Positions 20,825-40,331 of a stretch of DNA of 64,000 bases are shown here, in pieces (position 1 is the first letter of the stretch; every line of letters begins with the position of its first letter). The notes beneath the pieces are model-generated. The model saw nothing but the letters and a program-made list of their open reading frames with translations, had not been told where the DNA came from and did no database searches. The stretch is from Candidatus Aminicenantes bacterium (GTDB taxonomy: Bacteria > Acidobacteriota > Aminicenantia > Aminicenantales > Aminicenantaceae): the NCBI GenBank assembly GCA_016783445.1, contig JADHWO010000004.1:11212-75211 (forward strand). The letters are read 5' to 3'. Both the position numbers and the translations under genes were made by a program.

Positions 20825-21580
20825 TCAGATAATACCTAGCTCGCTGAACTGAGGAAATCCTGAATGAGATATCCCCCAGCAGGCGAAAAGAATAAGACTT
20901 AATAAAAAGACACCCAGGAAAAATATAAGAAAGGGATACTTCCCTCTTTCTTTTTGTCTTCGAAAATAAAGAAAAAGAGCAAGGAGAAAGCCAGCTCCTG
21001 CGGCGGGAAAAGCAAAAACAACTGACTGGCCTTCTATTGCTTCCACTGTAAAAGTAAAACCAAATAAAACTGCCCCGACTGAAAGAAGAATAATGTTTTT
21101 CCAGGAGATAGACTTGATAAAAAACTGGGAAGCTATAATGACCAAGCCTACAGAAATTAGAAAAACTCCTCCGTGCCATATAAGATGGCTGATTGTCTCA
21201 TCAAAAAGATATGTGGCCCGGTATAATTCCGAATCTTTCATGTTCTGAACAAGCCTGGCAAGAGAATTCGAAGAGAGATGGATACCATGACCACTCACAT
21301 AACAAAGAAATCCAATAGCTAAAAAGATCCGCGCCGAAATCCTTAAATTATCAAGCGAGGGCAACTGCCCTTGGATGGAATATAGAGTTTTATTGGTACG
21401 TGAATAAAAAATGTAAGCTAAAGGAATAACGGCAAAGGGAGTTATAAAATCAAGTGTATCTCCCCCAGTTAAAGGCCATTTAAGATAGCTCGTAAGGAGA
21501 GCTGGCAGGATATGAAAAAAAGCGAAGGAAAAACAGAAGGCAAAAAACCAGAAATATAGCCTATTACTATCTTCTTTCAT
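20825..21580 (-). CDS. Hypothetical integral membrane protein
   Basis: 251 aa with about 7 hydrophobic segments; convergent with pepD. Confidence 0.45.
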   Translation of the reverse strand: MKEDSNRLYFWFFAFCFSFAFFHILPALLTSYLKWPLTGGDTLDFITPFAVIPLAYIFYSRTNKTLYSIQGQLPSLDNLRISARIFLAIGFLCYVSGHGIHLSSNSLARLVQNMKDSELYRATYLFDETISHLIWHGGVFLISVGLVIIASQFFIKSISWKNIILLSVGAVLFGFTFTVEAIEGQSVVFAFPAAGAGFLLALFLYFRRQKERGKYPFLIFFLGVFLLSLILFACWGISHSGFPQFSELGII

Positions 21581-21850: not shown

Positions 21851-23305
21851 TTAAAAATGTAATCCAAAATTTATCCCAAATCCAAAACCGCCAAAACTTA
21901 CTCTTTTTTCAGGAAAATTTAGTATCATTGAACTATAAATCATATTAAATTGTTCATCATAGTCCCCAACATAATAACCGGTTAATTGAAAATCTTCGAT
22001 TTTTACAGGAATATATTTGTAATCGATATTCACTCCCACTGACCAATGCCTATTGAAAAAGTAATCATATTCTCCAAAAGCAATAAAAGTTAAGCCATTT
22101 TTTGAAAAATTGATATTATCGCCTTTCCCTCCTGAGAATCTCCATTCAGATGTTCTAAAATCTAGATTAAGATTACTTATTCCTATTCCAGCTCCTAGTT
22201 TAAAAGATGACTTCCTGAGAAAAGCATCTGGAATAGGCATCCACGCGCCTGTAATATAGTAAACACTTCCCGAATAATTTCCCAAGAGATAAAGGTCTGT
22301 GTAGTATTGTCTTCCTTCTTTATAGACTGTAACGTACTTATAACCATGAATTTCATGCTCTCCTAAAGGAAAATATCCAACACCCAAGGCAAATTTTTGG
22401 CTGATTGAATATTCAATTCTTATATTTTTAAAAAAAATAACAGGATCTTTTGCTACTTGCGGGAAATCTGTTGGTCCATATGAACCAAATGAAACAAAGA
22501 ATAGCATGAGCTCTCCACCTGGCTTTGTATCTCCAAAACCCCAATCTTTAAAATATCCTGAATAATTTTTAACTCCGTGAGAATTAAAATAACCAGGATT
22601 AAAAGTGAAATGAAAGCGGCTGAACTTACTAGATCTAGGTTTTTGATAATGTCTCTCATTAAATCTAATATGCTTTTTTTGAATTACATTTTTTTCAACA
22701 GGATTTCGAACTTTTTTCTTCATTAAAGAATTTGTCATTTTGTAACTATGAGGCAATTCTAGGGGAAACCGTGATTTAGAATTCAACTTTTTCAGAATGC
22801 TATCTACTTCTTCATTTGGCCTTCCTTCCAAAATTATCGACTCATCAATACCTTTGATAGCGCCCCAAATACCGCCAATTGGCGCTGATAAAATTGCCAA
22901 TCCTAATCCTCCTATCAAAGCCTTCTGACCGGCTGTCATACTGAACCAACCAGGCGGATCATCGCCGCTTAAAAGACCCAGCAATGCACCACTTCCTCCG
23001 CCAATCAATAATCCAGCTCCAAGACCTTTTAATAACTTTGATTTCTTCAAAATTCGGATACTTCTCAATTCATATATATCCGTTGTAATCCCAGATAAAG
23101 ATAAATCATCCATAAGAATAAGCTTGCTCCCTTTTACTGCTAGAAGTTCTGCCTTGATAATTTGGCCATCTAATGTCTGAATTAGAAGCTTAGCACCGTG
23201 TTTTTTTTCTTTAGCGTAAGAATCAGTCGCAAAAGTAATAACTGCAAAAAGTGTAATTAAAAATATTAGCTTCTTCCCCATTGATTTAAATTTTTTCTCT
23301 TTCAT
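21851..23305 (-). CDS. Outer-membrane beta-barrel protein with a glycine-zipper-rich periplasmic region (first transcription unit of the proposed regulon)
   Basis: Start placed at MKEKKFKS (GGGAGG 7 nt upstream); signal peptide ...TDSYA. Central GxxxG glycine-zipper tract; C-terminal half has alternating aromatic/hydrophobic beta-strand pattern ending ...GINFGLHF (terminal Phe typical of OMPs). The listed ORF start at 23368 overlaps the promoter motif and is unlikely. Confidence 0.6.
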   Translation of the reverse strand: MKEKKFKSMGKKLIFLITLFAVITFATDSYAKEKKHGAKLLIQTLDGQIIKAELLAVKGSKLILMDDLSLSGITTDIYELRSIRILKKSKLLKGLGAGLLIGGGSGALLGLLSGDDPPGWFSMTAGQKALIGGLGLAILSAPIGGIWGAIKGIDESIILEGRPNEEVDSILKKLNSKSRFPLELPHSYKMTNSLMKKKVRNPVEKNVIQKKHIRFNERHYQKPRSSKFSRFHFTFNPGYFNSHGVKNYSGYFKDWGFGDTKPGGELMLFFVSFGSYGPTDFPQVAKDPVIFFKNIRIEYSISQKFALGVGYFPLGEHEIHGYKYVTVYKEGRQYYTDLYLLGNYSGSVYYITGAWMPIPDAFLRKSSFKLGAGIGISNLNLDFRTSEWRFSGGKGDNINFSKNGLTFIAFGEYDYFFNRHWSVGVNIDYKYIPVKIEDFQLTGYYVGDYDEQFNMIYSSMILNFPEKRVSFGGFGFGINFGLHF

Positions 23306-23360
23306 CTCATTCCTCCCTAATCTTCTTTCTCTACATAATTTAGGCATATTGGGGAAAAGA

Positions 23361-23405
23361 GTTGTCAAAGAGATGTTAAAAGTTTGTTAAAAGTTTGTTA
23401 AAAAA
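23361..23405 (-). promoter_or_regulatory. Promoter-operator motif A: four direct half-sites (TTAACAAAC / TTAACAAAC / TTAACATCT / TTGACAACT) at 11-bp phasing; the last is a -35-like TTGACA
   Basis: Minus-strand reading TTTTTAACAAACTTTTAACAAACTTTTAACATCTCTTTGACAAC. Near-identical copies at 25776-25820 and 30358-30401, each just upstream of a minus-strand transcription unit. Confidence 0.6.
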
Positions 23406-23416
23406 GCAGAAATATC

Positions 23417-23458
23417 GAAAAAAAGGGGACTGTTCCTTAAAAAATAGGAACAATCCCC
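23417..23458 (-). terminator. Rho-independent terminator after the radical SAM gene
   Basis: ggggactgttcct-taaaaaat-aggaacaatcccc hairpin followed (minus strand) by TTTTTTTCG, between the stop at 23486 and promoter motif A. Confidence 0.6.
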
Positions 23459-23485: not shown

Positions 23486-24853
23486 TTACGAACCGGTAAT
23501 TGTATACACTTTTTTCTGAGCATGGTCTCTCTGGAAAATGGATAATCTAAAGAATACTGAGGAAATAATCAAAGAACGGAATATCCGTTTCAGTATATTC
23601 CCTTTAGTTGACATTGTGGAGATAAATCTCCACCACCTTTTAACAATACTTTTCCAGGAATAGAAGTATTTATTGATTCTGCGATAGGCTTTAAAAACAT
23701 CTTCCGAAGAAACTCGTTTTGGTGTAAAGACAAGATGGTCACCTTCATAATGTGAAAGGTCTTTATCAAAAATCCTCCCTTCTGACTCTACTTCTTTATG
23801 GAATGGTGTCCCGGGAATTGGGATGGAAATAGAGGTAAGTATTGAGCTCGGGTCAATATCATCAAGCCTCTCAGGCAGACTCTCGTAATAGGAAGGAGTA
23901 TCCTCATCAAGAGCCAGCATCAAACCTGTAAATGTCAAAATCCCACGCTTCTTAAGCTTCTCAAACAGCTCCTTGTATTCCTCCACTTTGTTCTGCCTCT
24001 TATGGACTGATGAAAGGCTTGGCTCATTTAATGACTCCAATCCAATAAAAGCCATTCCGCACCGCGCCTCGACTAACAGGTCTATATATTCATCATCATG
24101 AAGGCAGTCAAAGCTGAACTGGGCTCCTAATCCCCATAGTTTCAATTTGGCGATCTCTTTTAAAAGTTCTTTGGCATAACCCATATCTCCACCGAGATTA
24201 TTGTCAAGGAGCATTGCCATTTTGCGTTTATGGAATGGAAGTTTAGAGGTAGCGGTTAAATCACGGATCACATCCTCTATCGGCCTGCAGCGGTACGGAG
24301 TAGGTTTAACCGTAAGCTGACAGAAACTGCACTTGTATTTACATCCCCTCGTAGCCTCAGTCACAACAGGAACCGCAAAATCTGACTCAATCAGGTCATA
24401 TCGTGGAGGAGGTATATTGTCTAAAGATGGAGCAAGAGGTGCCTCATAAACCTTCTTCAATTTTCCATTTACCATATCCTCAACCACCTGGGCCCAAACA
24501 GGCTCTGCCTCCCCCACAACTACTGAATCCATGTGGGGAATAACCTCTTCAGGAAAAGTGGAAGGATATTTCCCACCTGCTACGACTGTTTTCCCAAGCT
24601 TTCTAAACTTATCCGCTACTTCAAAAGCATGGGGTGCACAGTAATCCATAAAGCTGAGCCCAATAAAATCTGCATCTGTGTTGTAATCGATAGGACGAAC
24701 CATCTCATGGAGAAGATCTACATCAACTATAGGTGGAGTCAAGCCAGCTACTAGAGCACCTGCGAGGGGTGGAGCTGGAGACCTGGCAAAATAAGTCTTT
24801 TCATCTCCCAGATTTTGGAAAAGTACAATAATTTGTAATTTTGGTTTATTCAT
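23486..24853 (-). CDS. B12-binding-domain radical SAM enzyme
   Basis: 455 aa; N-terminal cobalamin-binding-like Rossmann region then CKYKCSFCQ (CxxxCxxC); 8-nt overlap with the upstream SDR gene. Confidence 0.75.
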   Translation of the reverse strand: MNKPKLQIIVLFQNLGDEKTYFARSPAPPLAGALVAGLTPPIVDVDLLHEMVRPIDYNTDADFIGLSFMDYCAPHAFEVADKFRKLGKTVVAGGKYPSTFPEEVIPHMDSVVVGEAEPVWAQVVEDMVNGKLKKVYEAPLAPSLDNIPPPRYDLIESDFAVPVVTEATRGCKYKCSFCQLTVKPTPYRCRPIEDVIRDLTATSKLPFHKRKMAMLLDNNLGGDMGYAKELLKEIAKLKLWGLGAQFSFDCLHDDEYIDLLVEARCGMAFIGLESLNEPSLSSVHKRQNKVEEYKELFEKLKKRGILTFTGLMLALDEDTPSYYESLPERLDDIDPSSILTSISIPIPGTPFHKEVESEGRIFDKDLSHYEGDHLVFTPKRVSSEDVFKAYRRINKYFYSWKSIVKRWWRFISTMSTKGNILKRIFRSLIISSVFFRLSIFQRDHAQKKVYTITGS

Positions 24854-25667
24854 TAAATTCCTCCTTTTTATTTCGTAATTTATTCGCGATTCTTTTCATA
24901 ACCCTTATAACAAGCCAGGGCAGGAAACTTCGAGACAGTGCCAGCATCTTACCTCCAAGGGAAAGAATTAACTCCTGTTTTTCTTTTTTTATGGCTCTAA
25001 CAATAGTTTTTGCAACTCTCTGGGGAGAAACATAGGGGCCAGGAGGCCGGTGTGCCCCTCCCACATTCTTCTCTTTTTCGAAAAAGCCAGTCTGAGTATA
25101 GCCTGGATAAACGTTCATTATTGAGACACCGCTCCCTGCCAGCTCGGCACGCAAACTCTGGCCAAGGGCAACAAGCGCGGCTTTACTGGCACTATAAGCA
25201 CCCAGATAAGGAACGCCGTACATGGCTGCAACAGAGGAAATATTTACAATTAGCCCGCTACCATTTTTTTTCAGAAGAGGCAGGACTCTTAGAATACAAT
25301 GAACAGCCCCAAAAAAATTGACCTCCATTACTGAGCGGAAGTCCTCTAATGCCGTCATCTCACTATACCCATAAACTCCTGTGCCAGCATTGTTGATTAA
25401 GATGTCGATGCCCCCTAACTGGTCTTCACATCTTTTAATAAGCTGGTTGACCTTCTCCCTATTTGCTACATCACAGGCAACGGCAAGGGGAGCTTGAATC
25501 CCTGGGAAAGTATCTTCTAATTCATCAGCGACCTTCCTCAGAGAGCCAAAGCTACGGGATGTTATAGCTAGTTTTGCTCCTTTATTTGCAAATTCAAAGG
25601 CAAGCGCTTTGCCGATTCCAGAAGATGCTCCTGTTATAAGCACTCTCAAATCCCTGATTTCTGACAT
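24846..25667 (-). CDS. Short-chain dehydrogenase/reductase (SDR)
   Basis: 273 aa; TGASSGIG cofactor motif, NNAG, and YxxxK (YSASK) catalytic motif. Confidence 0.85.
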   Translation of the reverse strand: MSEIRDLRVLITGASSGIGKALAFEFANKGAKLAITSRSFGSLRKVADELEDTFPGIQAPLAVACDVANREKVNQLIKRCEDQLGGIDILINNAGTGVYGYSEMTALEDFRSVMEVNFFGAVHCILRVLPLLKKNGSGLIVNISSVAAMYGVPYLGAYSASKAALVALGQSLRAELAGSGVSIMNVYPGYTQTGFFEKEKNVGGAHRPPGPYVSPQRVAKTIVRAIKKEKQELILSLGGKMLALSRSFLPWLVIRVMKRIANKLRNKKEEFNE

Positions 25668-25775
25668 TTTTTATCCTAGTGACCGAAGTTTTGTAAAATG
25701 GAGACTGTCTCCATTTTTCGCAATTTTTTAATTTATTTATCCTCTTTCTATAATGTAACTCTCCCCTGAGATAAA

Positions 25776-25820
25776 GTTGTCAAAGAGATGTTAAGAGTTT
25801 GTTAAAAGTTTGTTAAAAAA
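25776..25820 (-). promoter_or_regulatory. Promoter-operator motif B (same 4 x 11-bp direct-repeat array ending in TTGACA)
   Basis: Minus strand TTTTTAACAAACTTTTAACAAACTCTTAACATCTCTTTGACAAC, about 110 nt upstream of the SDR start codon. Confidence 0.6.
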
Positions 25821-25842: not shown

Positions 25843-25889
25843 GGAAAAAGGGGGCAGGCTACTTTTTTTTAAAAAAGTAGCCTATCCCC
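25843..25889 (-). terminator. Rho-independent terminator closing the five-gene unit
   Basis: gggggcaggctac-(AT loop)-gtagcctatcccc hairpin with T-runs on both strands, immediately downstream of the stop of 25906..26334. Confidence 0.55.
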
Positions 25890-25905: not shown

Positions 25906-26334
25906 TTAATTAGTTCTATTTTTCCAGATTGCCAGAACAAGAAAAATACCTCCACCAAGACAGAGAAGGTTTATTAATATATTCAAAATACCTTCTCCAA
26001 CTCCTGTGAGATAGATTCCATGTTGGATATTAAACGAGATATCCAGAAGCCCAAGAAAGATAAGAGAAGCTCCCCCCATTAGGGAAAACAGACTGCCGTA
26101 AGACTTCTTTTTCAATAAGCCAATTCCACCGATAGTTAAAACTAAAGACAGATAGATATCAGGCACAGGAAAAGCTGATTCAAAAGCCAAATAGATCTCT
26201 TTCAATTGTGGGTCATTAAAACTTATTAAGTCCGTAGTAAAAAAAGCGATCCAGAAAAATACAATTCCAACTGCCAGTGCCAGCTCCAAAATGGCAGCAG
26301 TTTTAATCACTCCCGTCAATTTGACCTTTTTCAT
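25906..26334 (-). CDS. Small 4-TM membrane protein, last gene of the five-gene unit
   Basis: 142 aa, four hydrophobic helices; no recognisable family. Confidence 0.5.
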   Translation of the reverse strand: MKKVKLTGVIKTAAILELALAVGIVFFWIAFFTTDLISFNDPQLKEIYLAFESAFPVPDIYLSLVLTIGGIGLLKKKSYGSLFSLMGGASLIFLGLLDISFNIQHGIYLTGVGEGILNILINLLCLGGGIFLVLAIWKNRTN

Positions 26335-26376: not shown

Positions 26377-27216
26377 TTATTCGCCTGTTTGCATTTTTTT
26401 CTTCTTTTCACGTCTTTTTCTTATCGTACTGCTTCCAATCTTCTCCAGGAGCGGCAAAAGCAAGAAGTAAAACTTGGGAAAAGCCATTCCAATCCGGCAG
26501 AAAACTCCCATTCCGGACGGAACCAGTATTTCCGCCTTATTCTTACGCACTGCTTTGATTATTCCTTTAGCAACCTTTTCAGGTTTTAAGGGTTCCCCTA
26601 TAAAGGAAAGCACAGCCTCGTCATATAAAAGTTCATAATCAAGCTGTGGAGTATCTACAGAATCAGGACAAACTACAGCTATTCCCACGGGAGATTTACG
26701 CAATTCAGCATATAGCGAAAAAGAATAGCCTCGAATGGCGAATTTAGTAGCGCTATAGATAGCTTCACCCGGCATCGGAACAATACCTCCCAATGAGGCA
26801 ACATTGACAATTTTACCAGAATTCTGCTCTTTCATAAGAGGCAAAACTGCCCGGCATCCATTAATAGTTCCTAAAAAGTTTACTGAAACCTGATGATGGA
26901 CTTTCTCTAAGGCAATTTTTTCAGTTGCTCCTGGGTGAATAACGCCTGCATTGTTAACAAGAATATCAATTTTGCCGTACTTTTGCCTGACATTCTCTAT
27001 AAGCGACTGCCAGGATTCAGGGTTTGTGACATCATGTTCAATAACCATGGTCTCTGTTCCCAGATCCTTCAAGGCCACACTTAATTCTTCTAATTCTTTC
27101 TTTCGAATATCTGTCAGGACTAAAACAGCACCTTGTTTGGCAAAAATATGTGCTGTAGCTGAGCCTATACCACCAGCTGCACCGGTAATGATTGTTACTT
27201 TTTCCTTAAGCATCAA
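26377..27216 (-). CDS. Short-chain dehydrogenase/reductase (SDR)
   Basis: 279 aa; TGAAGGIG, NNAG and YSATK motifs. Confidence 0.85.
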   Translation of the reverse strand: MMLKEKVTIITGAAGGIGSATAHIFAKQGAVLVLTDIRKKELEELSVALKDLGTETMVIEHDVTNPESWQSLIENVRQKYGKIDILVNNAGVIHPGATEKIALEKVHHQVSVNFLGTINGCRAVLPLMKEQNSGKIVNVASLGGIVPMPGEAIYSATKFAIRGYSFSLYAELRKSPVGIAVVCPDSVDTPQLDYELLYDEAVLSFIGEPLKPEKVAKGIIKAVRKNKAEILVPSGMGVFCRIGMAFPKFYFLLLPLLEKIGSSTIRKRREKKKKMQTGE

Positions 27217-27252: not shown

Positions 27253-28299
27253 CTACCAAATTCCAGCTTCTAGTGCAATGTGAAGTAATTCTGTTATATA
27301 GCCTTGAGGATCAGAACCAGCCGTCTCAGACAAGTTTCTAATCAATGTAGTATTAAGAGGGATTAGCTGTTCTTGAGTCTTGATGCTTACTCCTTCTCCG
27401 CTGGCCACCTCACCAATTAAGATAGGCATCCAACCGTTTAGGGCGGCCCTTTGAAGAAATTTTTTTTCATTCTGAGGGCTTATGGTAAAACAAAGCTCAA
27501 ATTCTCCATGAACCGCTGCCAGAGCCAACCACGGCGGAAGATTTTGAGCTCTGCACACCTGTTGTACAACCGGATGCAAGATACGCTCCCAATCATTATT
27601 AAGAATGAATTTGTTATGATTCAGCCGCATAAGTGTATCTAAAGTATGTAAAAGACCATCACTTGTATCCATGCAACAACTGGCAAATTCCCTGACTATT
27701 ATTCCCTCTGCGATTCTTGCGGCTGGTTTGTAGAAAAACTCCAGCATTTTATAATCCTGCCCGGACAGCCGCAAAAAAGCAAAAATGCTTCCCAGGCCTC
27801 CTGGACCGGAAAGGTATAACTTATCCTTTGGTTTTGCTCCTATTCTGGTAATGGCTGATTTTTTTGGAACAAGTCCAACAGCACACCCGGAAAGAAATAA
27901 TTCTTTTCCCTGGTTAGTATCTCCACCAAGAACAAATGTATTCAGCCGCTTGCAGGCATCAGAAATTCCCTCTGTCAGTCTCGCCATAAATGCCTCATCC
28001 TGAGTTGAGGGGAAGCTAATTGACACGAGCAGTCCCAGGGGTTCAGCTCCAACCGCAGCCAGATCTGAAAAATTAACCATAGCCAGCATCCAGCCAATAA
28101 GATATGGATCATCATATAAGCCAGTGGATACCTCTTCCACCAAAGCATCCGTTGTTATTGCTAGATATTTTTCACTTTCCTTTCCAAAATCTATCAACTC
28201 TGCATCTGCTTCGTGAATCTCATTTTTTTTATGTGGAGCTTTGAGATAATTTTTAGTTATCTTCTCGATTTTTAAGTTTTCTAAAATATCTTTTTTCAT
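27253..28299 (-). CDS. ThiL-like PurM-superfamily ATP-dependent enzyme (AIR-synthase-related kinase)
   Basis: 348 aa; segment DDPYLIGWMLAMVNFSDLAAVGAEPLGLLVSISFP matches the ThiL/PurM N-domain signature (AVNLSDLAAMGA...). The genomic context is not thiamine biosynthesis. Confidence 0.65.
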   Translation of the reverse strand: MKKDILENLKIEKITKNYLKAPHKKNEIHEADAELIDFGKESEKYLAITTDALVEEVSTGLYDDPYLIGWMLAMVNFSDLAAVGAEPLGLLVSISFPSTQDEAFMARLTEGISDACKRLNTFVLGGDTNQGKELFLSGCAVGLVPKKSAITRIGAKPKDKLYLSGPGGLGSIFAFLRLSGQDYKMLEFFYKPAARIAEGIIVREFASCCMDTSDGLLHTLDTLMRLNHNKFILNNDWERILHPVVQQVCRAQNLPPWLALAAVHGEFELCFTISPQNEKKFLQRAALNGWMPILIGEVASGEGVSIKTQEQLIPLNTTLIRNLSETAGSDPQGYITELLHIALEAGIW

Positions 28300-29225
28300 T
28301 GGCTTACTTTTAAGATTCCCTGCAGTAATTTGATCTTAATGTCACGAGCAAGGCATACTTCTCCATCAAGCTCCAGCGGTGTAAGAGAAACCGGGTAAAT
28401 ATCAATTCTATCCGTCTTCCAGCTCCTCGTTTTTGGCAGTCCTGAAAATTTAGATCGTGCAAGAGAGAAAATCGTCCTTAATCTGGCCAGGACTCCCATC
28501 TTCTCACAAAGAGCAACACCAAAAAAATCGCTTTGAGGAGAAATATTAAAATCGTAACAGAGATTCCCGCTGATATGAGGATTAATAACAACGCTCAAAC
28601 TGGAAACATCCGTTGAATAGCGTTTATTCCCAATTTTGATCTCTGTTGGAATATTCTTAGCTGAGAATAATGTCTTTAATGCAGAATACCAGATGGTTCC
28701 CTCAACCCACTTGGATTTCATCAATTTTATGATTTTCTCTTTTGAATTGAACAGAAAATTGGCTTGAGCTATAACTCCAATACTGCAATTTATGATGAAA
28801 TACCTTCTCTGCCATTTTCCATTTTCATCCTCAAAATCAACCTGCCCAACATTATGCTGAACAGCATTTTTATAATCCAATTTTAACGGCACTTTACCAT
28901 TATTGTTATTATTTTCAGAGGAAGACTTGTGAAAATCATTGCTCGAACCCAAACCAATAGCTCCCATAATTACTTTCCTGCGTTCCACCTTTCTCATATT
29001 CATTATTTGATTGAGTAAAAAATTAATCGTCCCATCCCCTCCAGCCGACACTAATAATCTTTCTCCTCTGCCATACTCCTGACGCAGGCTCTTGTGGAAT
29101 TCTTCTAAATCAGAAATGAGGATATAATTATTTTTGATATACTTTTTTTCCAGCTCAGGTCTGTACTTTTCCCATTTTTGAAACCCTTTGCCATTATTGG
29201 AATATTTGTTTAATAAAATAAGCAT
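28296..29225 (-). CDS. DAGK_cat-domain lipid kinase (YegS/BmrU/sphingosine-kinase-like)
   Basis: 309 aa; LLVSAGGDGTINF matches the diacylglycerol-kinase catalytic-domain GGDGT motif; overlaps the neighbouring genes. Confidence 0.7.
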   Translation of the reverse strand: MLILLNKYSNNGKGFQKWEKYRPELEKKYIKNNYILISDLEEFHKSLRQEYGRGERLLVSAGGDGTINFLLNQIMNMRKVERRKVIMGAIGLGSSNDFHKSSSENNNNNGKVPLKLDYKNAVQHNVGQVDFEDENGKWQRRYFIINCSIGVIAQANFLFNSKEKIIKLMKSKWVEGTIWYSALKTLFSAKNIPTEIKIGNKRYSTDVSSLSVVINPHISGNLCYDFNISPQSDFFGVALCEKMGVLARLRTIFSLARSKFSGLPKTRSWKTDRIDIYPVSLTPLELDGEVCLARDIKIKLLQGILKVSQ

Positions 29226-29229
29226 TGTC

Positions 29230-30285
29230 TCACACCTGCCTTTTTTCTGGTCTAAGTTTTAAAGTCAGTTCAAAGAATAAATAAAAGGCCACAATAAAAA
29301 CCAGCCAATTTATCTTCAGAGTTACAGTTATCGCTGCACAGTAAAGAATAAAAGAACGAACCACATTAGCTATCGCACCGTGAGCTTTGTTTTCATCCCT
29401 GGTTTGATGGATCTTGATCTGGGCATAAAGGTTTACAGCTACTGCTATAAAAAATATGGAAATTCCAAGTATGTTTTGCTCTCTGAACAAAATCAGTACC
29501 CAGCCGGTAAGCACAGCGGCTAAGAGAGCAATAACATCGCTGTATACAGCAGCTGCCTTCCAGCCAAAAACTACAGGAAAAGTCTTATAACCGGTCTTTC
29601 TATCAGCTGAAATATCTTTGAAATAACCCATCACAACAAAATTAGCATAACCGAAAAAAATCGCTAACACTGCTAAAAGGAAGGCCAAAGAATGTAAGTC
29701 TCCCAGCCGAATGATTTCCTTGACTGAATAATCTCTATCTACAAATCTCCCCATAACTGGCAGCAAAGCAACTATCCATGAATTCCAGAATGGCCCACCC
29801 CACCAGGTTCTTTTTAACGGAGTGTAAGTGAGCAAACCTATAACTGCAATAACACCAAAGACTAAAATTACAGGATTTAAATAAACCATGATTAAAATCG
29901 CCAGTGTTAATCCAGCAAGGCTGACACTTAAAACCTGCCAGCGGGAAATTATACCTTTTATCAAGGGACGATATGGGGAGGAGAGAGCATCTGTATCCAT
30001 TTGAAAACAATCTGTAAGAGCCTGTCCTAATCCGTAGGATAAGAACAGAGGGATAAAAGCAAGTGCAATTCTTACATCTCCCAGCTCTTTTATAAAAACA
30101 AGCCCTACCAATCCAGCACTTCCAGAGACAAAAAAAAGATATGGTCTCATTGTTGACCAAAAAGCCTTCCAAAAAGTTAAACTTAAGATATCCGCATACC
30201 GATAATTGGGCATGAAACATCCCCTCAGGAGATTTAATAAAATGAGCCCGGTACTTATTTTTATATTTTTACTTACTGCTAACAT
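29230..30285 (-). CDS. UbiA-family aromatic/polyprenyl prenyltransferase (integral membrane)
   Basis: About 8-9 TM helices. Asp-rich motifs TDCFQMDTD (NDxxDxxxD-like) and YFKDISADRKTG (DxxxD) fit the UbiA superfamily. True start may be the internal MPNYRY (30213). Confidence 0.7.
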   Translation of the reverse strand: MLAVSKNIKISTGLILLNLLRGCFMPNYRYADILSLTFWKAFWSTMRPYLFFVSGSAGLVGLVFIKELGDVRIALAFIPLFLSYGLGQALTDCFQMDTDALSSPYRPLIKGIISRWQVLSVSLAGLTLAILIMVYLNPVILVFGVIAVIGLLTYTPLKRTWWGGPFWNSWIVALLPVMGRFVDRDYSVKEIIRLGDLHSLAFLLAVLAIFFGYANFVVMGYFKDISADRKTGYKTFPVVFGWKAAAVYSDVIALLAAVLTGWVLILFREQNILGISIFFIAVAVNLYAQIKIHQTRDENKAHGAIANVVRSFILYCAAITVTLKINWLVFIVAFYLFFELTLKLRPEKRQV

Positions 30286-30357
30286 TATGCCTCCTGGAGT
30301 TTATTAATCTTCAATTTCTCCATTTCTATAAATAATCTAACTTCCCCTGGATCTAAA

Positions 30358-30401
30358 GTTGTCAAAAAGATGTTAAGAGTTTGTTAAAAGTTTGTTAAAA
30401 A
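30358..30401 (-). promoter_or_regulatory. Promoter-operator motif C (same direct-repeat array), upstream of the UbiA-led unit and directly downstream of the response-regulator gene
   Basis: Minus strand TTTTTAACAAACTTTTAACAAACTCTTAACATCTTTTTGACAAC. Confidence 0.6.
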
Positions 30402-30584: not shown

Positions 30585-31268
30585 TTATTTTTGAAATTTA
30601 TAACCGGACCAGGGTATAGTGATAAGATGTGAAGGTTTGGCTGGATTTCCCTCTATTTTTTGCCTTAAATGGTGGATAAAAGTATCAATCGTCCTTGTTG
30701 TGGGGAATTTATCGTAACCCCAGACTTCATTAAGAATTGTCTCCCGGCTTACAACTTCTCCCTCATGGGAAACGAGGAGCTTAAGAAGGCCATACTCTTT
30801 GGCTGTAAGGTAAATGTCTTTTTTTCCTTTTGAGGCGATTTGTTTTTTAAAATTAATGTAAACATTCCCAAAAGAATACTCCTCAACTTCTGGCGCTTCA
30901 GGTTTAGAGCGGCGGAGCACAGCTCTAATCCTGGCAAGAAGTTCTTTTGTCCCAAAAGGTTTTGTGATGTAATCATCCGCTCCAAACTCAAGCCCTAAAA
31001 CTTTATCAATTTCTTCTTTCTTCTCCCCTGTCAGCATGATAATAGGCGTTTTAATTTTTTTTGTCCGCAACCTCTTACAAACTTCCAGTCCATTTAAAGA
31101 AGGGAGTAAAAAATCGAGTATTATCAAATCAACTGTTTCCTGGCTTGCCAGCTGAAATCCCTTCTCTCCATCAGCAGCCGTGATAACTTTAAAACCTTCT
31201 ATTTCCATATAAACTTTTAATGTTTCAAGTAAAACTTTATCATCGTCGATAATTAATATTTTTTTCAT
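30585..31268 (-). CDS. OmpR/PhoB-family response regulator (receiver plus winged-helix DNA-binding domain)
   Basis: 227 aa; receiver with DD...D...K pattern (IIDDD, ILDFLLP, T...K); C-terminal wHTH (LTAKEYGLLKLL..., TIDTFIHHLRQKIE). Confidence 0.9.
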   Translation of the reverse strand: MKKILIIDDDKVLLETLKVYMEIEGFKVITAADGEKGFQLASQETVDLIILDFLLPSLNGLEVCKRLRTKKIKTPIIMLTGEKKEEIDKVLGLEFGADDYITKPFGTKELLARIRAVLRRSKPEAPEVEEYSFGNVYINFKKQIASKGKKDIYLTAKEYGLLKLLVSHEGEVVSRETILNEVWGYDKFPTTRTIDTFIHHLRQKIEGNPAKPSHLITIPWSGYKFQK

Positions 31269-33643
31269 GGCTTTGGAAAAATCAGAATAAAAGTGCTGCC
31301 TTTATTGGCTTGACTTTCAACTTTGACCTCCCCCTTATGAGCTTCCATAATGTGTTTGACAATTTTTAATCCCAGGCCTACTCCTTTTGGATTGTGTTGG
31401 CTCGCCTCAGCATGCCGGTAAAACTCCTCGAATATCCTCTTTATATCTCTGGAAGGAATGCCAATCCCCTTATCTTTAACATGAATCTCCGCCAGTTTTT
31501 CTCTCTCGATAAGCTGGATCACGATTTCTCTCTTATCTGACGAATATTTAATAGCATTATCAATAAGATTAGTCAAAGCCTGCTTAACAGCATCCTGGTC
31601 TATCTCTAAAAAAATAGGACCCTCCGCTAAATCAACAGTGAAAACAAATCCATCTGATTCTAACTTTTGTAAAAACAGTTGTGCTACTTCTATAATGATA
31701 GACTGTATTTTAACTTTTTGAAAATTATAAGTTTTTACTTGTTGTTCAATTTTTCCAAAATCAAGGATATTGTGCAGGAATCGGGAAAGTCGGCTGCTTT
31801 CGCTGGCCACAAGGTTTATGAGCTCATCCTGCTTTGTTTTCTCCTTTATCTTCCCTCCCTGAAGAATTTCCGCCAGACCTTGGATGGAACTCATGGGAGT
31901 TCGAAGCTCGTGGGATACAGATGAAATAAACTCAGTTTTAAGGCGGTTAAGCTCATTCAATTTTTCTCTTTCCACTCTTTCATAAATCACTTCTTCCTGA
32001 AGCCTGATCCTTTCAAGGTTTAAAGCCAGTTCCCTGGCCATGGTAAGTAAAAGCTCTATGTCATCCCGGCTGAATTTCTCCCCTGATTTTTTCTTTCCCA
32101 GAGACAATAATCCAGCAAGGTCAGATGACTTAAAAGACAGAGGAAAAATTAACTCAATTTTTTTCTCTTCAAGTTCTTCCTCCAGTGAAAAATCCATATG
32201 TTCTTCCGTACGAACAGCCCTTTTCCTGGCAATTATATTATCTGAATCCATACAAAGAGAAACCAAAAAGTTGAGGTTTTTTTCGCCATTTTTTCCAATT
32301 AAAAGCTTAGGCTTTCCGGACCTCACAGAAAATATGTAGACTCCGATATGTTCTAGAGGCAAGGTGTTTTTCATCTTTTGTAAGAAAAATTCTACAAGCT
32401 GGCCGCGGTTTACCATCTCATAAGCTCTCTCACTGAAACTGAGGATGCTTTTTTTATAGTCAAAACTCATCCGGAAAAATGCCTTATCAACTATCTCTTG
32501 GATTTTCTTCCTCGCAGGATGAAAAACTACTGCAGCCGCAAGAGCCCCAATAACAGATACAGCTGTTTTATTGACAGAAAAGAAATTTGAAAAGATATTT
32601 TGAAAAAGAGCAACGGAAAAGAGATAAATACTGACAGTGAACACAGTTAGTAAAAAATAGACCAAGCTTCGGTTGATGACCAGTTCGACTTCCATCAGTT
32701 TAAACTTCACAATGGAAAAAGCGAACGCAAGAGGTATAAAAATAAAAAACAACAGGGAAAATTCCTCTGTCATCAGAGGTTTATTTCTTATTACCTGGGG
32801 TAATTCATATAAAAGAATAAACGGTCCCAAACCGACAAAAAGACCGTAAAAGATCCATTTTATCTGGGCTCGTTCTTCCTCCATGGCAACTTTTCGATAG
32901 CTGAAAATAAGGAAAAAAACTGCTAAAAGGACAAAGAAAATTAGGTAACAACGAAGAGCATAAAGAACGATTTGGTAGTACTTGTTTATTTCGATCGAAG
33001 ATTTTAAGCTTGACAAGAGAAATAACACCTCAAGAACCCCAGCAAAAATTAGAGCCGGACAGTAAATAAAAAACCTGCTTATCTTGAGTTTTTTCTTTGA
33101 GAAAAAAAGAGAAAAACGAAGTAGAAGAGCAGGTGCCAGAGGATAGAGAATATAGAACAAGATCCCCGGAGCATAAGAGAGCCAGTCTTTCCGCAAACAG
33201 AAAAATCCGCTGTTTATGATAAGGGAAGAAAAGAGTGCCAAAGAAGCCCAATAATAGATGCGAGCCCTTGAATCTTCGGCACGCAGGAAAAAAACTAAAA
33301 TTGCTACGGCAAGGCAGAAGAGAGCTATAAGGAAATAAATTAAGGGATAAGCAGCCTGGGGCCCAGAGTAATATGGAATGATTTGACCCTCTCTTTTTTT
33401 TATTGTGTCATTAACTTTGATATGGAAGGTTACCTGTTCTCCGATTGTTTTCCGGCTAAGCATAAATTCACGGTCTAATTTCCCTTCGGTTTTTACGCCG
33501 TCTATTTGCTCAACAAAACCATAGTCTACTCCCGTAGGAAGAGGAAGGCCGGGGCGCTGACGGAGCAAAAAGAATCCGTAAATACTTATAAGAAAAATGA
33601 CAAAGCCCACAAACAAATAAAAGAAAAACAGGGCTTTTTTCAT
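31265..33643 (-). CDS. Multi-TM sensor histidine kinase (short periplasmic loop, about 7 TM helices, cytoplasmic linker/GAF-like region, HisKA plus HATPase_c)
   Basis: 792 aa; H-box SHELRTPMSSI, N-box NLIDNAIKYS, G-boxes DKGIGIP and GVGLGL; 4-nt overlap with the response-regulator gene. Confidence 0.9.
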   Translation of the reverse strand: MKKALFFFYLFVGFVIFLISIYGFFLLRQRPGLPLPTGVDYGFVEQIDGVKTEGKLDREFMLSRKTIGEQVTFHIKVNDTIKKREGQIIPYYSGPQAAYPLIYFLIALFCLAVAILVFFLRAEDSRARIYYWASLALFSSLIINSGFFCLRKDWLSYAPGILFYILYPLAPALLLRFSLFFSKKKLKISRFFIYCPALIFAGVLEVLFLLSSLKSSIEINKYYQIVLYALRCYLIFFVLLAVFFLIFSYRKVAMEEERAQIKWIFYGLFVGLGPFILLYELPQVIRNKPLMTEEFSLLFFIFIPLAFAFSIVKFKLMEVELVINRSLVYFLLTVFTVSIYLFSVALFQNIFSNFFSVNKTAVSVIGALAAAVVFHPARKKIQEIVDKAFFRMSFDYKKSILSFSERAYEMVNRGQLVEFFLQKMKNTLPLEHIGVYIFSVRSGKPKLLIGKNGEKNLNFLVSLCMDSDNIIARKRAVRTEEHMDFSLEEELEEKKIELIFPLSFKSSDLAGLLSLGKKKSGEKFSRDDIELLLTMARELALNLERIRLQEEVIYERVEREKLNELNRLKTEFISSVSHELRTPMSSIQGLAEILQGGKIKEKTKQDELINLVASESSRLSRFLHNILDFGKIEQQVKTYNFQKVKIQSIIIEVAQLFLQKLESDGFVFTVDLAEGPIFLEIDQDAVKQALTNLIDNAIKYSSDKREIVIQLIEREKLAEIHVKDKGIGIPSRDIKRIFEEFYRHAEASQHNPKGVGLGLKIVKHIMEAHKGEVKVESQANKGSTFILIFPKP

Positions 33644-40000: not shown

Positions 40001-40331
40001 CTTCAAAAAGAACAAACTGGGAACTCTTATCGGGACTAGAACCTGGGGAGGACTTGTCGGATTGTCAGGCAATCCGGCCCTGGCTGATGGAGGTTATACT
40101 GCAGTTCCTACATTTGGTTTTATAAACACAGAAGGAAATTGGGCAGTAGAAGGAGTTGGAGTCTATCCGGATATAGAAGTGTATGACCGGCCAGAGCTTG
40201 TGGCCAAAGGAGAAGATCCATGTATAAAAAAAGCTGTCGAAGTCCTTCTTGAAGAGCTTAAAAAGAATCCTCCGAAAAAAATAAAAAAGCCCGAAGATCC
40301 TGACCGCTCGAAGCGGATAAAGAAAAAGTAA
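37065..40331 (+). CDS. Tricorn protease homolog (beta-propeller domains plus PDZ plus S41 C-terminal peptidase), secreted
   Basis: 1088 aa; signal peptide; repeated WSPD propeller motifs; charged KE-rich linker; C-terminal region with tricorn/S41 hallmarks (HVPNTSVEGN, IDERYNGGG, SASGGDAF). Confidence 0.8.
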   Translation: MRKTTLLIFLCLGIVTSNFAIDDARLLRFPDINKDLIVFVYAGDIWSVQAAGGAAKKLTSHEGMELFPKISPDSRWIAFSAEYSGSRQVFIMPITGGIPTQLTYYNDVGMMPPRGGFDYQVLDWTPDSQKILVRANRTPYGQRRGKYFLVSIDGGFETPLQIPEGGGGTFSSDGKKITYTPIGREFRTWKRYQGGMAQDIWTYDLEKAVSKRLTTFPGTDQHPMWYKDKIYFVSDRDLTLNIYSYDLATEKIEKITGHSEYDVLWPSGENGLVVYENGGYIYKLNIHTNENQRIQVNINYDSPYVMPYFKNVKENITSFDISPSGKRAVFETRGDIFTVPAKEGITYNLTDTQGVREIFPAWSPDGQFLTYYSDKTGEYEIYLMDRSKDNAVTQLTEGSEIWRYPLVWSPDNSKVLFSDRNQDLQILDIKTKNITYVDKARRFDITDYDWSPDSKWVVYTKYSDNTQDAVWAYSLDKGKTFQLTNDMFIDFSPVFSTCGKYIFFLSDRSFNLNFSSFEFDYIFRESTNIYAVPLTEAVPPLFKDKNDQEEVKKEKAEKETNSKKEAKKTSKTEEEKAPSVRINFEGINERIVSFPLKPGDYRNLTAVEGGVLYVKDGELHMFKIEDKKDSVIIKGISGGALSANRKKILYRARQKYGIIDLKPDQKVGAGELNLSDLTMKIEPLKEWKQLFNDGWRIYRDWFYVKNLHGVDWQKMKVKYGQLVPYLSHRADLDFIFGELVGELNTGHCYINWGDFPRVKRVEGGLLGAELKVDEKSLRYIISKIYKGENWNERTRSPLTEQGINVKEGDYLISLNGQNITTKDNPYKFLENTVGKRIPIVVNSKPVEKGAREFLIKPIQSELNLFYMDWVNSRREMVDKLSKGKIGYFHVPNTSVEGNRELFKGFYAFRNKDALIIDERYNGGGFIPDVMTELLTRKILSYWGRRGLIPSQTPGAAHEGPKVMLINHYSASGGDAFPYYFKKNKLGTLIGTRTWGGLVGLSGNPALADGGYTAVPTFGFINTEGNWAVEGVGVYPDIEVYDRPELVAKGEDPCIKKAVEVLLEELKKNPPKKIKKPEDPDRSKRIKKK

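Follow-up and report, generated by a model that had tools for sequence, protein, structure and literature searches.

A radical SAM gene coupled to a short-chain dehydrogenase in a conserved, probably co-regulated gene set for putative lipid-type biosynthesis in uncultured anaerobes

The window that we analyzed is a stretch of 64 kb from a Candidatus Aminicenantes bacterium, and all of the features described below lie on its minus strand. The radical SAM gene (23486-24853) encodes a protein of 455 aa, and directly upstream of it is the gene for a 273-aa classical short-chain dehydrogenase/reductase, SDR1 (24846-25667). The reading frames share 8 nt (ATGAATAA), and a ribosome-binding site, AAGGAGG, sits inside the SDR1 gene. 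A terminator-like hairpin of 13 pairs with a T-run ends the unit (23425-23458), and another terminator-like hairpin, which ends the five-gene UbiA operon, lies upstream of the promoter of the pair (25855-25884). SDR1 and the radical SAM gene, rightly paired in the initial annotation, form one translationally coupled transcription unit that has a promoter and a terminator to itself. On other contigs, gene calls made independently gave the same 273-aa and 455-aa products. SDR1 scored above the cut-off for adh_short (PF00106) at 184.6 bits and has the features of a classical SDR, with TGASSGIG (TGxxxGxG), NNAG, and YSASK (YxxxK) readable in its sequence. Wherever a member of the SDR1 orthogroup occurs, it immediately precedes the radical SAM gene, and the pairing is kept in several phyla.

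The surrounding genes were compared with those of 77 related loci from Aminicenantes, WOR-3, Eisenbacteria, Gemmatimonadota, Ignavibacteria, and Bacteroidota, and the hosts of the cassette loci were all metagenome-assembled genomes. The UbiA-family prenyltransferase (29230-30285), present in 50 loci, matched Pfam UbiA at 97.6 bits with both Asp-rich motifs intact. Its nearest solved structures were chlorophyll synthase (7e-7) and DGGGP synthase (4e-6), both of them O-prenylating UbiA enzymes, and it did not reach the NCBIfam DGGGP synthase equivalogs (62.8 bits versus a cut-off of 353 and 55.7 versus 296). The orthologues are often automatically named DGGGP synthase by JGI pipelines. The DAGK_cat-type lipid kinase (28296-29225; 47 loci) carries a GGDGT motif and has the diacylglycerol kinase DgkB as its closest solved relative; DAGK_cat is the superfamily of sphingosine and ceramide kinases. 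The ThiL-like protein of the AIR-synthase (PurM) superfamily (27253-28299; 53 loci) matched ThiL structures at 4e-31 but scored just under the cut-off of the thiL family TIGR01379 (171.6 bits versus 184.15). Its place in the cassette fits a specialized paralogue, and the protein would be a kinase that turns a phosphate monoester into a diphosphate. The window also holds SDR2 (26377-27216), of an orthogroup separate from that of SDR1, and TM4 (25906-26334; 23 loci), a small membrane protein of 142 aa that belongs to no known family. Downstream of the radical SAM gene, a 484-aa protein with a signal-peptide-like N terminus and no known family (21851-23305) has no detectable homology to the Omp85-type barrels encoded at the equivalent position in other loci. 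Neither an alpha-oxoamine synthase nor a FadD-type acyl-CoA ligase is encoded in the window.

The upstream region of the SDR1-radical SAM unit contains an operator of four TT(A/G)ACA direct repeats spaced by 11 bp (25773-25816; TTAACAAACTT, TTAACAAACTC, TTAACATCTCT, and TTGACAACTTT). The same four repeats precede the UbiA operon (30355-30398), and a third copy, with one mismatch, stands before the gene for the 484-aa secreted protein (23358-23401). The 28-mer TTAACAAACTTTTAACAAACTCTTAACA is exact at 30371-30398 and 25789-25816 and has one mismatch at 23374-23401; the 64 kb contain no further copy, and shuffled sequences predict none. The initial annotation had proposed that the pair and the prenyltransferase unit share a promoter motif, and the exact 28-mer bears this out; the motif is also conserved in related loci. 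An element of the form TAnATTAT downstream of the repeats (25750-25757, TACATTAT), aligned in the three promoter copies, is probably the -10 region. The distance from the TTGACA of the fourth repeat to this element is 19 to 22 nt, which exceeds the standard -35/-10 spacing, and a canonical sigma-70 promoter was rejected on this ground. Because the gap is too wide for a -35/-10 pair, an activator-dependent promoter is more likely.

The operator is kept upstream of the SDR1-radical SAM unit in six related loci (L001, L002, L005, L006, L024, and L069). Across the 1.08 Mb of the 77 loci, the motif had 58 matches compared with approximately 3 expected, and 46 of the 58 lay no more than 350 bp upstream of cassette genes, namely those for UbiA (15), SDR (13), alpha-oxoamine synthase (10), DAGK (3), a phosphoesterase (3), the ThiL-like protein (1), and the radical SAM protein (1). 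This distribution points to co-regulation of the pair with the neighboring units. The likely regulator is encoded next to the UbiA operon: an OmpR/PhoB-family response regulator (30585-31268; Response_reg and Trans_reg_C), of a family with a member next to the cassette in 20 loci, together with a 792-aa histidine kinase with a long hydrophobic N-terminal half (31265-33643; HisKA and HATPase_c), found in 13 loci, for which Pfam returned HisKA and HATPase families only. The best NCBIfam matches of the regulator were YycF, RpaB, MtrA, OmpR, and PhoB, every one of them below its cut-off. We infer that this regulator binds the four-repeat operator, and all of the cassette units are probably switched on together. 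Like the cassette operator, the PHO boxes bound by PhoB/OmpR-type regulators are head-to-tail 11-nt direct repeats, each with a conserved core, at the -35 position (PMC4415409). The regulator differs from PhoB itself, with a score of 194 bits against a cut-off of 296. Several loci encode a secreted phosphoesterase close to the cassette, and in two of them (L063 and L072) its gene is immediately preceded by a copy of the motif; no pst or phoU gene was found among the window genes examined. The pattern recognized by Bacillus subtilis PhoP consists of four TT(A/T/C)ACA units.

The gene neighborhood is conserved across at least six phyla, in which the radical SAM gene occurs with UbiA, the DAGK-type lipid kinase, and the ThiL-like kinase. 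Among the 32 well-flanked loci, with at least 5 kb on each side, UbiA, DAGK, and ThiL-like genes were found together within 10 kb in 25, and an SDR or an alpha-oxoamine synthase was present in 31. This synteny strongly supports the earlier proposal that the radical SAM enzyme is a candidate step toward the product of the UbiA unit, but the word "tailoring" used there undersells the gene, since no other cassette member is as conserved or as constant as the radical SAM protein (58 to 85% identity across phyla). The repeat operator and the OmpR-type two-component system also recur across loci. The pairing with an SDR holds in some lineages and fails in Ignavibacteria and Bacteroidota, where the gene immediately preceding it encodes an alpha-oxoamine synthase and no SDR1 orthologue stands alongside the radical SAM gene. 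An alpha-oxoamine synthase is encoded in most of the non-Aminicenantes loci; its best NCBIfam match was the CFB-group serine palmitoyltransferase (366 to 437 bits versus a cut-off of 640), with almost equal scores for BioF and KBL. WOR-3 and Eisenbacteria loci additionally carry a FadD-type ligase, and one locus (L019) has the cassette as a compact operon of six genes. A full-text literature search found no description of this gene combination. Taken together, these data support the conclusion that the radical SAM gene belongs to an undescribed, probably co-regulated gene set for putative lipid-type biosynthesis in many uncultured anaerobes.

The radical SAM protein has more than 1,700 homologues, the closest with 98% identity, and it is a member of the superfamily by its score against PF04055 (51.7 bits versus a cut-off of 29.5) and by the CxxxCxxC motif C171/C175/C178, which is invariant across 57 orthologues. 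Its layout consists of an N-terminal Rossmann domain of the B12 type (approximately residues 1 to 140), the CxxxCxxC motif (171 to 178), a partial TIM barrel to approximately residue 345, and a helical, DUF4070-like C terminus (22.1 bits versus a cut-off of 22). None of the curated NCBIfam equivalogs was attained by the protein or by its nearest paralogues (30 to 39% identity): it scored 64 bits against BchE TIGR02026 (cut-off, 481; residues 163 to 437 only), 30.3 against HpnR (650), 64.1 against HpnJ (577.6), 42.1 against MgmA/QCMT (360), 59.6 against PhpK (600), 42 against the ladderane radical SAM family (360), and 67.1 against TIGR04013 (251). GrsA/GrsB, Gmm, HpnP, and Cds were not named by any NCBIfam match at an E value of 0.01 or less. 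The protein is a member of an uncharacterized orthogroup in a new pathway context, outside BchE and every other curated housekeeping or cofactor family, and neither the orthogroup nor its nearest paralogues include a characterized member. Database entries sometimes name the orthologues bacteriochlorophyllide d C-12(1)-methyltransferase. One apparent fusion, an 817-aa protein (P0123) with 430 extra residues, was rejected as a Rosetta-stone case; it most likely represents two genes merged by a missed stop, because a lipoprotein-type signal peptide opens the extra stretch, for which no family match exists.

The initial annotation had also called the enzyme B12 binding, a label that stands on a sub-threshold Pfam match and a Rossmann-type fold. 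The score against B12-binding PF02310 was 25.7 bits, below the cut-off of 32.1; among 28 family members, 20 had a B12-binding match at an E value of 1e-3 or less, the best being 4.6e-7. A structural model of moderate confidence (pLDDT, 68.7; low near residues 13 to 31 and 142 to 187) has a beta-alpha Rossmann domain at residues 5 to 137, and its best fold matches were MgmA, AprD4, CysS, and TsrM. The best matches in a sequence-profile search of the PDB (2e-5 to 4e-3) were all cobalamin radical SAM enzymes, namely MgmA/QCMT (9CCB), TsrM (6WTE), CysS (9N1B-D), and TokK (7KDX). These are class I cobalamin-dependent enzymes with solved structures, and they share with the cassette protein the order of N-terminal Rossmann domain, CxxxCxxC partial TIM barrel, and C-terminal extension (PMC12931638). 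MgmA, CysS, and TsrM matched the model at 6e-12 to 1e-8. However, identity to the class I enzymes is 15 to 18%, with similarity confined to the radical SAM core (residues 162 to 356), and none of these enzymes acts on a lipid, their substrates being peptides or small molecules. The model also matched the folds of MiaB and RimO, which reflects shared architecture only, because C72, conserved in 53% of the orthologues, is the one cysteine of the N-terminal domain; a methylthiotransferase assignment was rejected, as the triad of N-terminal cysteines that serves a second cluster in those enzymes is missing. The three cluster cysteines are the only invariant cysteines of the orthologues.

Mean identity was the same in the N-terminal domain as in the catalytic core (0.72 and 0.72), with 35 invariant residues, and a domain conserved like the core would fit a cofactor-binding role. 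No cobalt ligand is conserved among cobalamin radical SAM enzymes, which bind the cofactor base-off and supply no ligand from the protein; therefore, cobalamin binding is not readable from the sequence (PMC12931638). No RNA element reached the gathering score in the window, with chance-level matches only around the cassette, and no cobalamin riboswitch was present in the 64 kb. Use of cobalamin by the cassette enzyme is plausible.

We somewhat favor the interpretation that the SDR1-radical SAM unit serves the same lipid pathway as the UbiA, DAGK-type, and ThiL-like enzymes, is switched on together with them, and contributes a radical SAM enzyme that acts on a hydrophobic intermediate. In other phyla the pathway would also take in the alpha-oxoamine synthase and the acyl-CoA ligase. 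The response regulator would bind the four 11-bp repeats before each unit and switch the units on jointly. The first product may be a long-chain alcohol or amino-alcohol; where an alpha-oxoamine synthase is present, it would give an amino-ketone that an SDR reduces. The lipid kinase would then phosphorylate the alcohol, the ThiL-like enzyme would extend the phosphate to a diphosphate, and UbiA would couple an isoprenoid or alkyl group to the backbone, giving an amphiphilic, membrane-type product. Working with SAM and its [4Fe-4S] cluster, the radical SAM enzyme would remove a hydrogen at an unactivated carbon in a hydrophobic intermediate, and SDR1 would act on an adjacent carbonyl or hydroxyl. 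That the product is a lipid is suggested by UbiA, a membrane prenyltransferase, by the relatedness of the lipid kinase to DgkB, and, in other loci, by the serine palmitoyltransferase match of the alpha-oxoamine synthase and by the FadD-type ligase. In this organism the substrate is less clear, since the window lacks both the alpha-oxoamine synthase and the acyl-CoA ligase.

The succession of a lipid kinase and a phosphate kinase mirrors the feed of O-prenylating UbiA enzymes from alcohol to monophosphate to diphosphate. Plant VTE5 and VTE6 are two-step prenol salvage kinases, but the families of the cassette kinases, DAGK_cat and PurM/ThiL, are unrelated. The diphosphate donor of a UbiA enzyme is normally allylic or cation-stabilized in some other way, and a saturated alkyl diphosphate would have no known precedent in this role. 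GGGP synthase and G1P dehydrogenase were not seen in the window or the loci examined. Bacterial sphingolipid and sulfonolipid synthesis starts with a serine palmitoyltransferase or cysteate acyltransferase and a ketoreductase, which the cassette resembles in the best match of its alpha-oxoamine synthase and in the accompanying SDRs and, in some loci, FadD ligases. In contrast, the cassette SDRs scored 134 to 151 bits (SDR1, 134.4; SDR2, 151.2) against the 3-ketodihydrosphingosine reductase family NF049977, below its cut-off of 400, and a ceramide synthase was absent from the loci examined. Among radical SAM enzymes with a B12-type domain, those known to modify lipids include HpnP, HpnR, Gmm, and GrsA/GrsB (PMC13459092); these and HpnJ share the enzyme class, work on unactivated carbons of isoprenoid lipids, and occur in lipid gene clusters. 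The cassette differs from the hopanoid and tetraether systems in that no hopanoid or tetraether genes lie near it, and its DAGK, ThiL-like, and alpha-oxoamine synthase partners are missing from the published catalogue of lipid radical SAM enzymes (PMC13459092).

The chemistry of the radical SAM step can be read in several ways. By class precedent, cobalamin-mediated C-methylation is the leading guess and the most likely one, and the C-terminal similarity to BchE and to HpnJ (of the DUF4070 type) counts against it, since the reaction of BchE is known, and that of HpnJ proposed, to be something other than methylation (PMC12931638, PMC13459092). A cyclase or other enzyme that forms carbon-carbon bonds, comparable to the GDGT ring synthases GrsA/B (with a B12-type domain) or more loosely to Tes/Mss, would cyclize or cross-link the prenyl or alkyl chain that UbiA attaches. 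GrsA/B have the layout of the model, with a Rossmann domain, a partial TIM barrel, and a helix at the C terminus (PMC13459092), and both the relatedness of the prenyltransferase to DGGGP synthase and the C-terminal resemblance to BchE, itself a cyclase, would suit such an enzyme. We nevertheless regard this reading as quite unlikely, as the auxiliary-cluster cysteine motif of the Tes type is absent and the BchE match is far under its cut-off. A radical dehydratase or lyase that works together with a reductase is rather unlikely, too. From a vicinal diol or amino-alcohol, such as a sphingoid-type backbone, the enzyme would abstract a hydrogen next to the hydroxyl or amino function, and after loss of water or ammonia SDR1 would reduce the resulting ketone with NAD(P)H to leave a deoxygenated or deaminated backbone; the Rossmann domain would be structural and hold no cobalamin. 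AprD4, a dehydratase that is not known to use cobalamin despite its B12-like domain, was the second-best fold match with the highest TM-scores (0.48 to 0.49). This diol dehydratase (AprD4/AprD3, 6FD2) works with a dedicated NADPH-dependent reductase, AprD3 (PMC5461906), with which the suggested coupling of SDR1 and the radical SAM enzyme may be compared. The translational coupling, the retention of the pair in several phyla, and the sub-threshold B12 match all agree with such an assignment, and an alpha-oxoamine synthase with an SDR would yield exactly an amino-alcohol substrate. On the other hand, the sequence search found MgmA, TsrM, CysS, and TokK and missed AprD4, to which similarity is undetectable and whose substrate is an aminoglycoside; the radical SAM gene lacks an SDR1 orthologue in Ignavibacteria and Bacteroidota; and the conservation of the N-terminal domain fits cofactor binding.

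Other alternatives concern the product itself. A low-abundance hydrophobic signal or secondary metabolite, sensed by the multi-pass histidine kinase in an autoinduction loop, could be a prenylated and modified amino-ketone or hydroxy-ketone derivative of the CqsA type. The membrane-embedded kinase and regulator that adjoin the cassette in many loci and the operator before every unit are compatible with this, and an alpha-oxoamine synthase with an SDR also follows the logic of alpha-hydroxyketone autoinducers, whose synthase family the cassette enzyme matches at 189 to 217 bits. Yet that score is far from the cut-off of 428 and is exceeded by those for serine palmitoyltransferase, BioF, and KBL, the window has no such synthase, and the outer-membrane barrels and lipid kinase better match envelope lipid biology, which makes a signal improbable. 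Hardly credible is housekeeping tetrapyrrole or cofactor biosynthesis, with a BchE/BchQ/BchR-type radical SAM enzyme, a chlorophyll-synthase-like UbiA, and an ALA-synthase-like alpha-oxoamine synthase. The methyltransferase name carried by some orthologues, chlorophyll synthase as the top solved relative of UbiA, and the place of BchE among the best NCBIfam matches would favor it, but the scores fall far short (BchE as given above; ChlG, 52.8 bits versus 313; ALA synthase, 248 to 261 bits versus 338 and outranked by serine palmitoyltransferase, BioF, and KBL), and no other bch, chl, or hem genes occur in the examined parts of the window and loci. A tetrapyrrole assignment from database names was rejected on these scores and the gene context. 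The host groups, such as Aminicenantes, WOR-3, and Ignavibacteria, are not known to be phototrophic.

Returning to the shared lipid pathway, a more specific form of it is possible but on balance doubtful: the cassette would make an undescribed class of envelope lipid, in which a twice-phosphorylated alcohol or amino-alcohol backbone is joined by UbiA to a chain and altered at an unactivated carbon by the radical SAM enzyme, with synthesis under the control of the two-component system. The backbone may be a sphingoid-type long-chain amino-alcohol or an alcohol, the chain may be isoprenoid or alkyl, and the lipid would possibly be made on demand under phosphate or envelope stress. Some of the most difficult lipid modifications known are the work of radical SAM enzymes with B12-type domains, and each characterized one has explained a geochemical biomarker (PMC13459092). 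DGGGP-synthase-like genes of unexplained use have been noted in all FCB phyla (PMC6431249). Because the UbiA orthologues are often automatically annotated as DGGGP synthase, the cassette provides a concrete, testable context for at least some of these genes and, if our interpretation is true, could explain the purpose of the DGGGP synthase homologues in FCB-group bacteria. The compact six-gene operon of L019 directly suits heterologous expression. The cassette hosts are abundant uncultured anaerobes; if the interpretation holds, the cassette lipid occurs in widespread uncultured anaerobes of sediments and the subsurface and could be a source of orphan sedimentary biomarkers.

Both genes of the pair were found exactly where the initial annotation had placed them, on the minus strand, as a 273-aa SDR (SDR1; 24846-25667) and a 455-aa radical SAM protein (23486-24853), and gene calls on independent contigs yielded the same two products. 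SDR1 scored 184.6 bits against adh_short, with the motifs TGASSGIG, NNAG, and YSASK all intact in its sequence; the radical SAM protein scored 51.7 bits against PF04055 (cut-off, 29.5 bits) and carried CKYKCSFC at residues 171 to 178. The two genes overlap by 8 nt (ATGAATAA), and the ribosome-binding site of the radical SAM gene (AAGGAGG) is located within the SDR1 gene. Downstream of the stop codon of the radical SAM gene lies a strong terminator-like hairpin (23425-23458), and another (25855-25884) closes the operon upstream of the pair, which, read from the sequence, is clearly predicted to be co-transcribed. The 5' untranslated region of this unit also contains a 7-bp hairpin (ATGGAGA-CAG-TCTCCAT) followed by TTT (25698-25714, minus strand) that may act as an attenuator or have a stabilising role.

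The label "B12-binding" was less firm than the radical SAM assignment: the protein scored 25.7 bits against PF02310, below the gathering score of 32.1, although 20 of 28 family members matched PF02310 at an E value of ≤1e-3 (best, 4.6e-7), and its DUF4070 match was at threshold. An AlphaFold model (28 sequences) was of moderate quality (pLDDT 68.7, pTM 0.68), with low confidence at residues 13-31 and 142-187, and predicted an N-terminal beta-alpha Rossmann domain (residues 5-137), a partial barrel, and long C-terminal helices. In a Foldseek comparison of this model with the PDB, the matches were the cobalamin radical SAM methylases MgmA/QCMT (E value, 5.9e-12), CysS (9.1e-11), and TsrM (8.3e-09), the radical SAM enzyme AprD4, a diol dehydratase (3.9e-11, with the best TM-score, 0.48-0.49), and the methylthiotransferases MiaB and RimO (2.4e-08 and weaker). 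The likeness to MiaB and RimO is architectural only, as the N-terminal domain has a single, poorly conserved cysteine. The only invariant cysteines of the orthologues are the three cluster cysteines. Searched against PDB sequences, the family profile matched only cobalamin radical SAM enzymes (MgmA, TsrM, CysS, and TokK), with the similarity restricted to core residues 162-356. The N-terminal domain, with 35 invariant residues, is conserved as strongly as the catalytic core (mean identity, 0.72 versus 0.72) and is thus functional; most simply, it would be a cofactor-binding domain. Cobalamin radical SAM enzymes bind cobalamin base-off with no conserved protein ligand, so cobalamin binding is not readable from sequence (PMC12931638). 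All NCBIfam scores were far under their cut-offs, namely, TIGR04013 (67 bits; cut-off, 251), HpnJ (64; 578), BchE (64; 481), PhpK (60; 600), MgmA (42; 360), the ladderane radical SAM family (42; 360), and HpnR (30; 650). A housekeeping role in tetrapyrrole or cofactor synthesis is ruled out by family scores, the gene context in the window genes and loci examined, and the hosts.

A near-identical 45-bp block, followed by a conserved TAnATTAT element, precedes SDR1, the UbiA gene, and the next gene downstream. This operator consists of four head-to-tail 11-bp units (TTAACAAACTT, TTAACAAACTC, TTAACATCTCT, and TTGACAACTTT), and its 28-mer core occurs in three copies in the window and nowhere else there, with shuffles expecting zero. 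Operators of the PhoB/OmpR family of regulators are of this type, with 11-nucleotide direct repeats that are bound head-to-tail (PMC4415409). Directly upstream of the UbiA operon, a regulator of the OmpR/PhoB family is encoded at 30585-31268 and a histidine kinase of 792 aa at 31265-33643, and we infer that this regulator pairs with the four-repeat operator. The distance from the TTGACA of the last repeat unit to the TAnATTAT element is 19-22 nt, so an activator-dependent promoter fits better than a plain sigma-70 promoter. In the window, the operator stands before three units. The first (30285 down to 25906) comprises UbiA, a DAGK-type kinase, a ThiL-like protein, a second SDR (SDR2), and a small membrane protein; the second is the SDR1-radical SAM pair; and the third (23305 down to 21851) encodes a 484-aa secreted protein that belongs to no known family. 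The window UbiA (29230-30285, minus strand) has many orthologues of 326-327 aa, which align with it starting at about its residue 25, so Met25 could be an alternative start, although a strong AGGAGG before the first ATG counts against it. A 161-aa ORF inside the UbiA gene (29735-30220, same strand, other frame) is probably spurious.

The 484-aa protein (21851-23305, minus strand; operator at 23358-23401) has a signal-peptide-like N terminus and a C terminus ending in GLHF, had no Pfam or NCBIfam match, and is not conserved at its window position in related loci. In seven of these (L001, L002, L005, L006, L049, L069, and L070), an Omp85-superfamily outer-membrane barrel gene directly follows the radical SAM gene (e.g., L001:11506-12672 and L049:11447-12352), and this barrel is unrelated to the 484-aa protein at the same position (BLASTP E = 0.35). 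A 251-aa multi-pass membrane protein (20825-21580, minus strand), with no family match and no operator copy, is kept downstream of the cassette in the Aminicenantes loci L001, L002, L006, L024, L069, and L070.

The radical SAM protein had more than 1,700 homologues, and the best 120 of these (75-98% identity) all carried generic or automatic names. A scan of species-representative genomes gave 77 loci, every one from a metagenome-assembled genome, with 78-85% identity to the window copy in Aminicenantes and 58-71% in WOR-3, Eisenbacteria, Gemmatimonadota, Ignavibacteria, Kapaibacteria, and Bacteroidota. Clustering at 50% identity reduced the orthogroup to essentially one full-length representative; beyond it, in the 50%-clustered library, scores dropped sharply to a large set of paralogues at 30-39% identity, likewise without an NCBIfam assignment.

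Using tblastn and all-against-all ORF clustering across the related loci, we found the radical SAM family in 70 loci, ThiL-like in 53, UbiA in 50, the DAGK-type kinase in 47, SDR in 46, alpha-oxoamine synthase (AOS) in 35, the small membrane protein in 23, the response regulator in 20, the histidine kinase in 13, and a FadD-type ligase in 5. In the 32 loci where the radical SAM gene has 5 kb or more of sequence on each side, 25 had the full trio of UbiA, DAGK-type kinase, and ThiL-like genes within 10 kb and 3 more had a partial trio (28/32), and an SDR or AOS was present in 31. The exceptions were Gemmatimonadota, of which L023, L034, and L052 retain only SDR2 and the small membrane protein and L066 retains neither. 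Gene order was UbiA-DAGK-ThiL-like-SDR2-small membrane protein, then SDR1-radical SAM, in Aminicenantes, including the window, where neither AOS nor FadD was found; AOS-UbiA-DAGK-ThiL-like-FadD-SDR1-radical SAM in WOR-3 and Eisenbacteria; and (SDR2)-UbiA-DAGK-ThiL-like, then AOS-radical SAM, in Ignavibacteria and Bacteroidota. In a Cyclobacteriaceae metagenome-assembled genome (L019), six genes are packed into one compact operon in the order SDR-radical SAM-ThiL-like-AOS-DAGK-UbiA. Two orthogroups of SDRs can be distinguished: SDR1 genes invariably lie immediately upstream of the radical SAM gene, whereas SDR2 genes are found at other positions. The linkage of the radical SAM gene to UbiA, the DAGK-type kinase, ThiL-like, SDR, and AOS genes is tight and spans multiple phyla. 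Conservation within the cassette is highest for the radical SAM protein; between an Ignavibacteriaceae locus (L028) and the window its identity is 62%, versus 42% for ThiL-like, 42% for UbiA, and 29% for DAGK.

Just downstream of the radical SAM gene of L028, a gene for a 99-aa 2x[4Fe-4S] ferredoxin (L028:11460-11759, minus strand) could encode an electron donor. On either side of the L019 cassette, a gene for a PadR-type regulator is paired with one for an 866-aa MacB/FtsX-type permease (L019:5782-8717 and L019:16144-19079); the two pairs are paralogous and in inverted orientation. Elsewhere in the window, genes for two paralogous proteases of the tricorn type, each about 1,090 aa long (PD40, PDZ_Tricorn, Peptidase_S41; 37065-40331, plus strand, and 45065-48346, minus strand), enclose those for an amino-acid permease-Usp fusion, an FAD oxidoreductase of the DAO family, and an ornithine cyclodeaminase. 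This neighbourhood is one of protein and amino-acid catabolism and has no relation to the cassette.

In the 1.08 Mb of the 77 loci, a search for three TT[AGT]ACA cores at 11-bp spacing, with two mismatches allowed, gave 58 matches versus about 3 in composition-matched shuffles. Of the 58 matches, 46 preceded a same-strand cassette gene by no more than 350 bp (UbiA, 15; SDR, 13; AOS, 10; DAGK, 3; phosphoesterase, 3; ThiL-like, 1; radical SAM, 1); thus, the design of two units under one operator is conserved across phyla, with either SDR1 or AOS leading the radical SAM unit. Co-regulation with the neighbouring units, which the initial annotation had named as a test, is supported comparatively by these 46 upstream matches. 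These data do not establish a true Pho regulon: the window regulator scored below the cut-off of the PhoB model, and the window genes examined included neither pst nor phoU. Near the cassette, loci of Ignavibacteria, Bacteroidota, and Kapaibacteria carry genes for secreted 5'-nucleotidases/metallophosphoesterases, one of them with a T9SS sorting domain (L063:16203-18083, L072:3339-5249, L055:2356-4500, and L061:3658-7506), and in L063 and L072 the gene has its own repeat-motif copy directly upstream, which hints at a phosphate-related regulon.

A plausible pathway can be proposed from the enzyme families. The DAGK_cat kinase, with DgkB as its nearest solved relative, would phosphorylate a lipid alcohol. 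ThiL converts thiamine phosphate monoester to the diphosphate, and the ThiL-like protein (E value of 4e-31 against ThiL structures; 171.6 bits versus a cut-off of 184) may likewise convert a phosphate monoester to a diphosphate. The UbiA protein, closest to chlorophyll synthase and DGGGP synthase, would attach a prenyl or alkyl group to a backbone oxygen or nitrogen. AOS scored best as CFB-group serine palmitoyltransferase (366-437 bits versus a cut-off of 640), with only slightly lower scores for BioF and KBL, and, where present, it could provide a long-chain amino-alcohol together with an SDR. The radical SAM enzyme would then functionalise an unactivated carbon. Class precedent places C-methylation first among the possible reactions, as a tentative choice; elimination and reduction like that of AprD4/AprD3 (PMC5461906) ranks next, and cyclisation or coupling third.

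Within the literature library covered by the search, no paper united the genes of the cassette. A review from 2026 on radical SAM enzymes that modify lipids treats Tes, Mss, Gms, GrsA/B, Gmm, Cds, HpnH/J/P/R, Jaw5, and the ladderane enzymes; neither its section list nor searches of it by keyword turned up any enzyme accompanied by the cassette's partner genes (PMC13459092). Genes resembling DGGGP synthase, with no known use, were noted across FCB phyla in earlier surveys (PMC6431249, PMC7852524); orthologues of the window UbiA are often automatically named DGGGP synthase and may be among these genes. The shared operator and the multi-phylum linkage support the overall reading of the initial annotation, in which the radical SAM enzyme is a candidate tailoring step for the product of the UbiA unit. 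Overall, the enzyme has class-B architecture and belongs to an undescribed, widely distributed cassette that is probably under two-component regulation, given the proposed pairing with its regulator.
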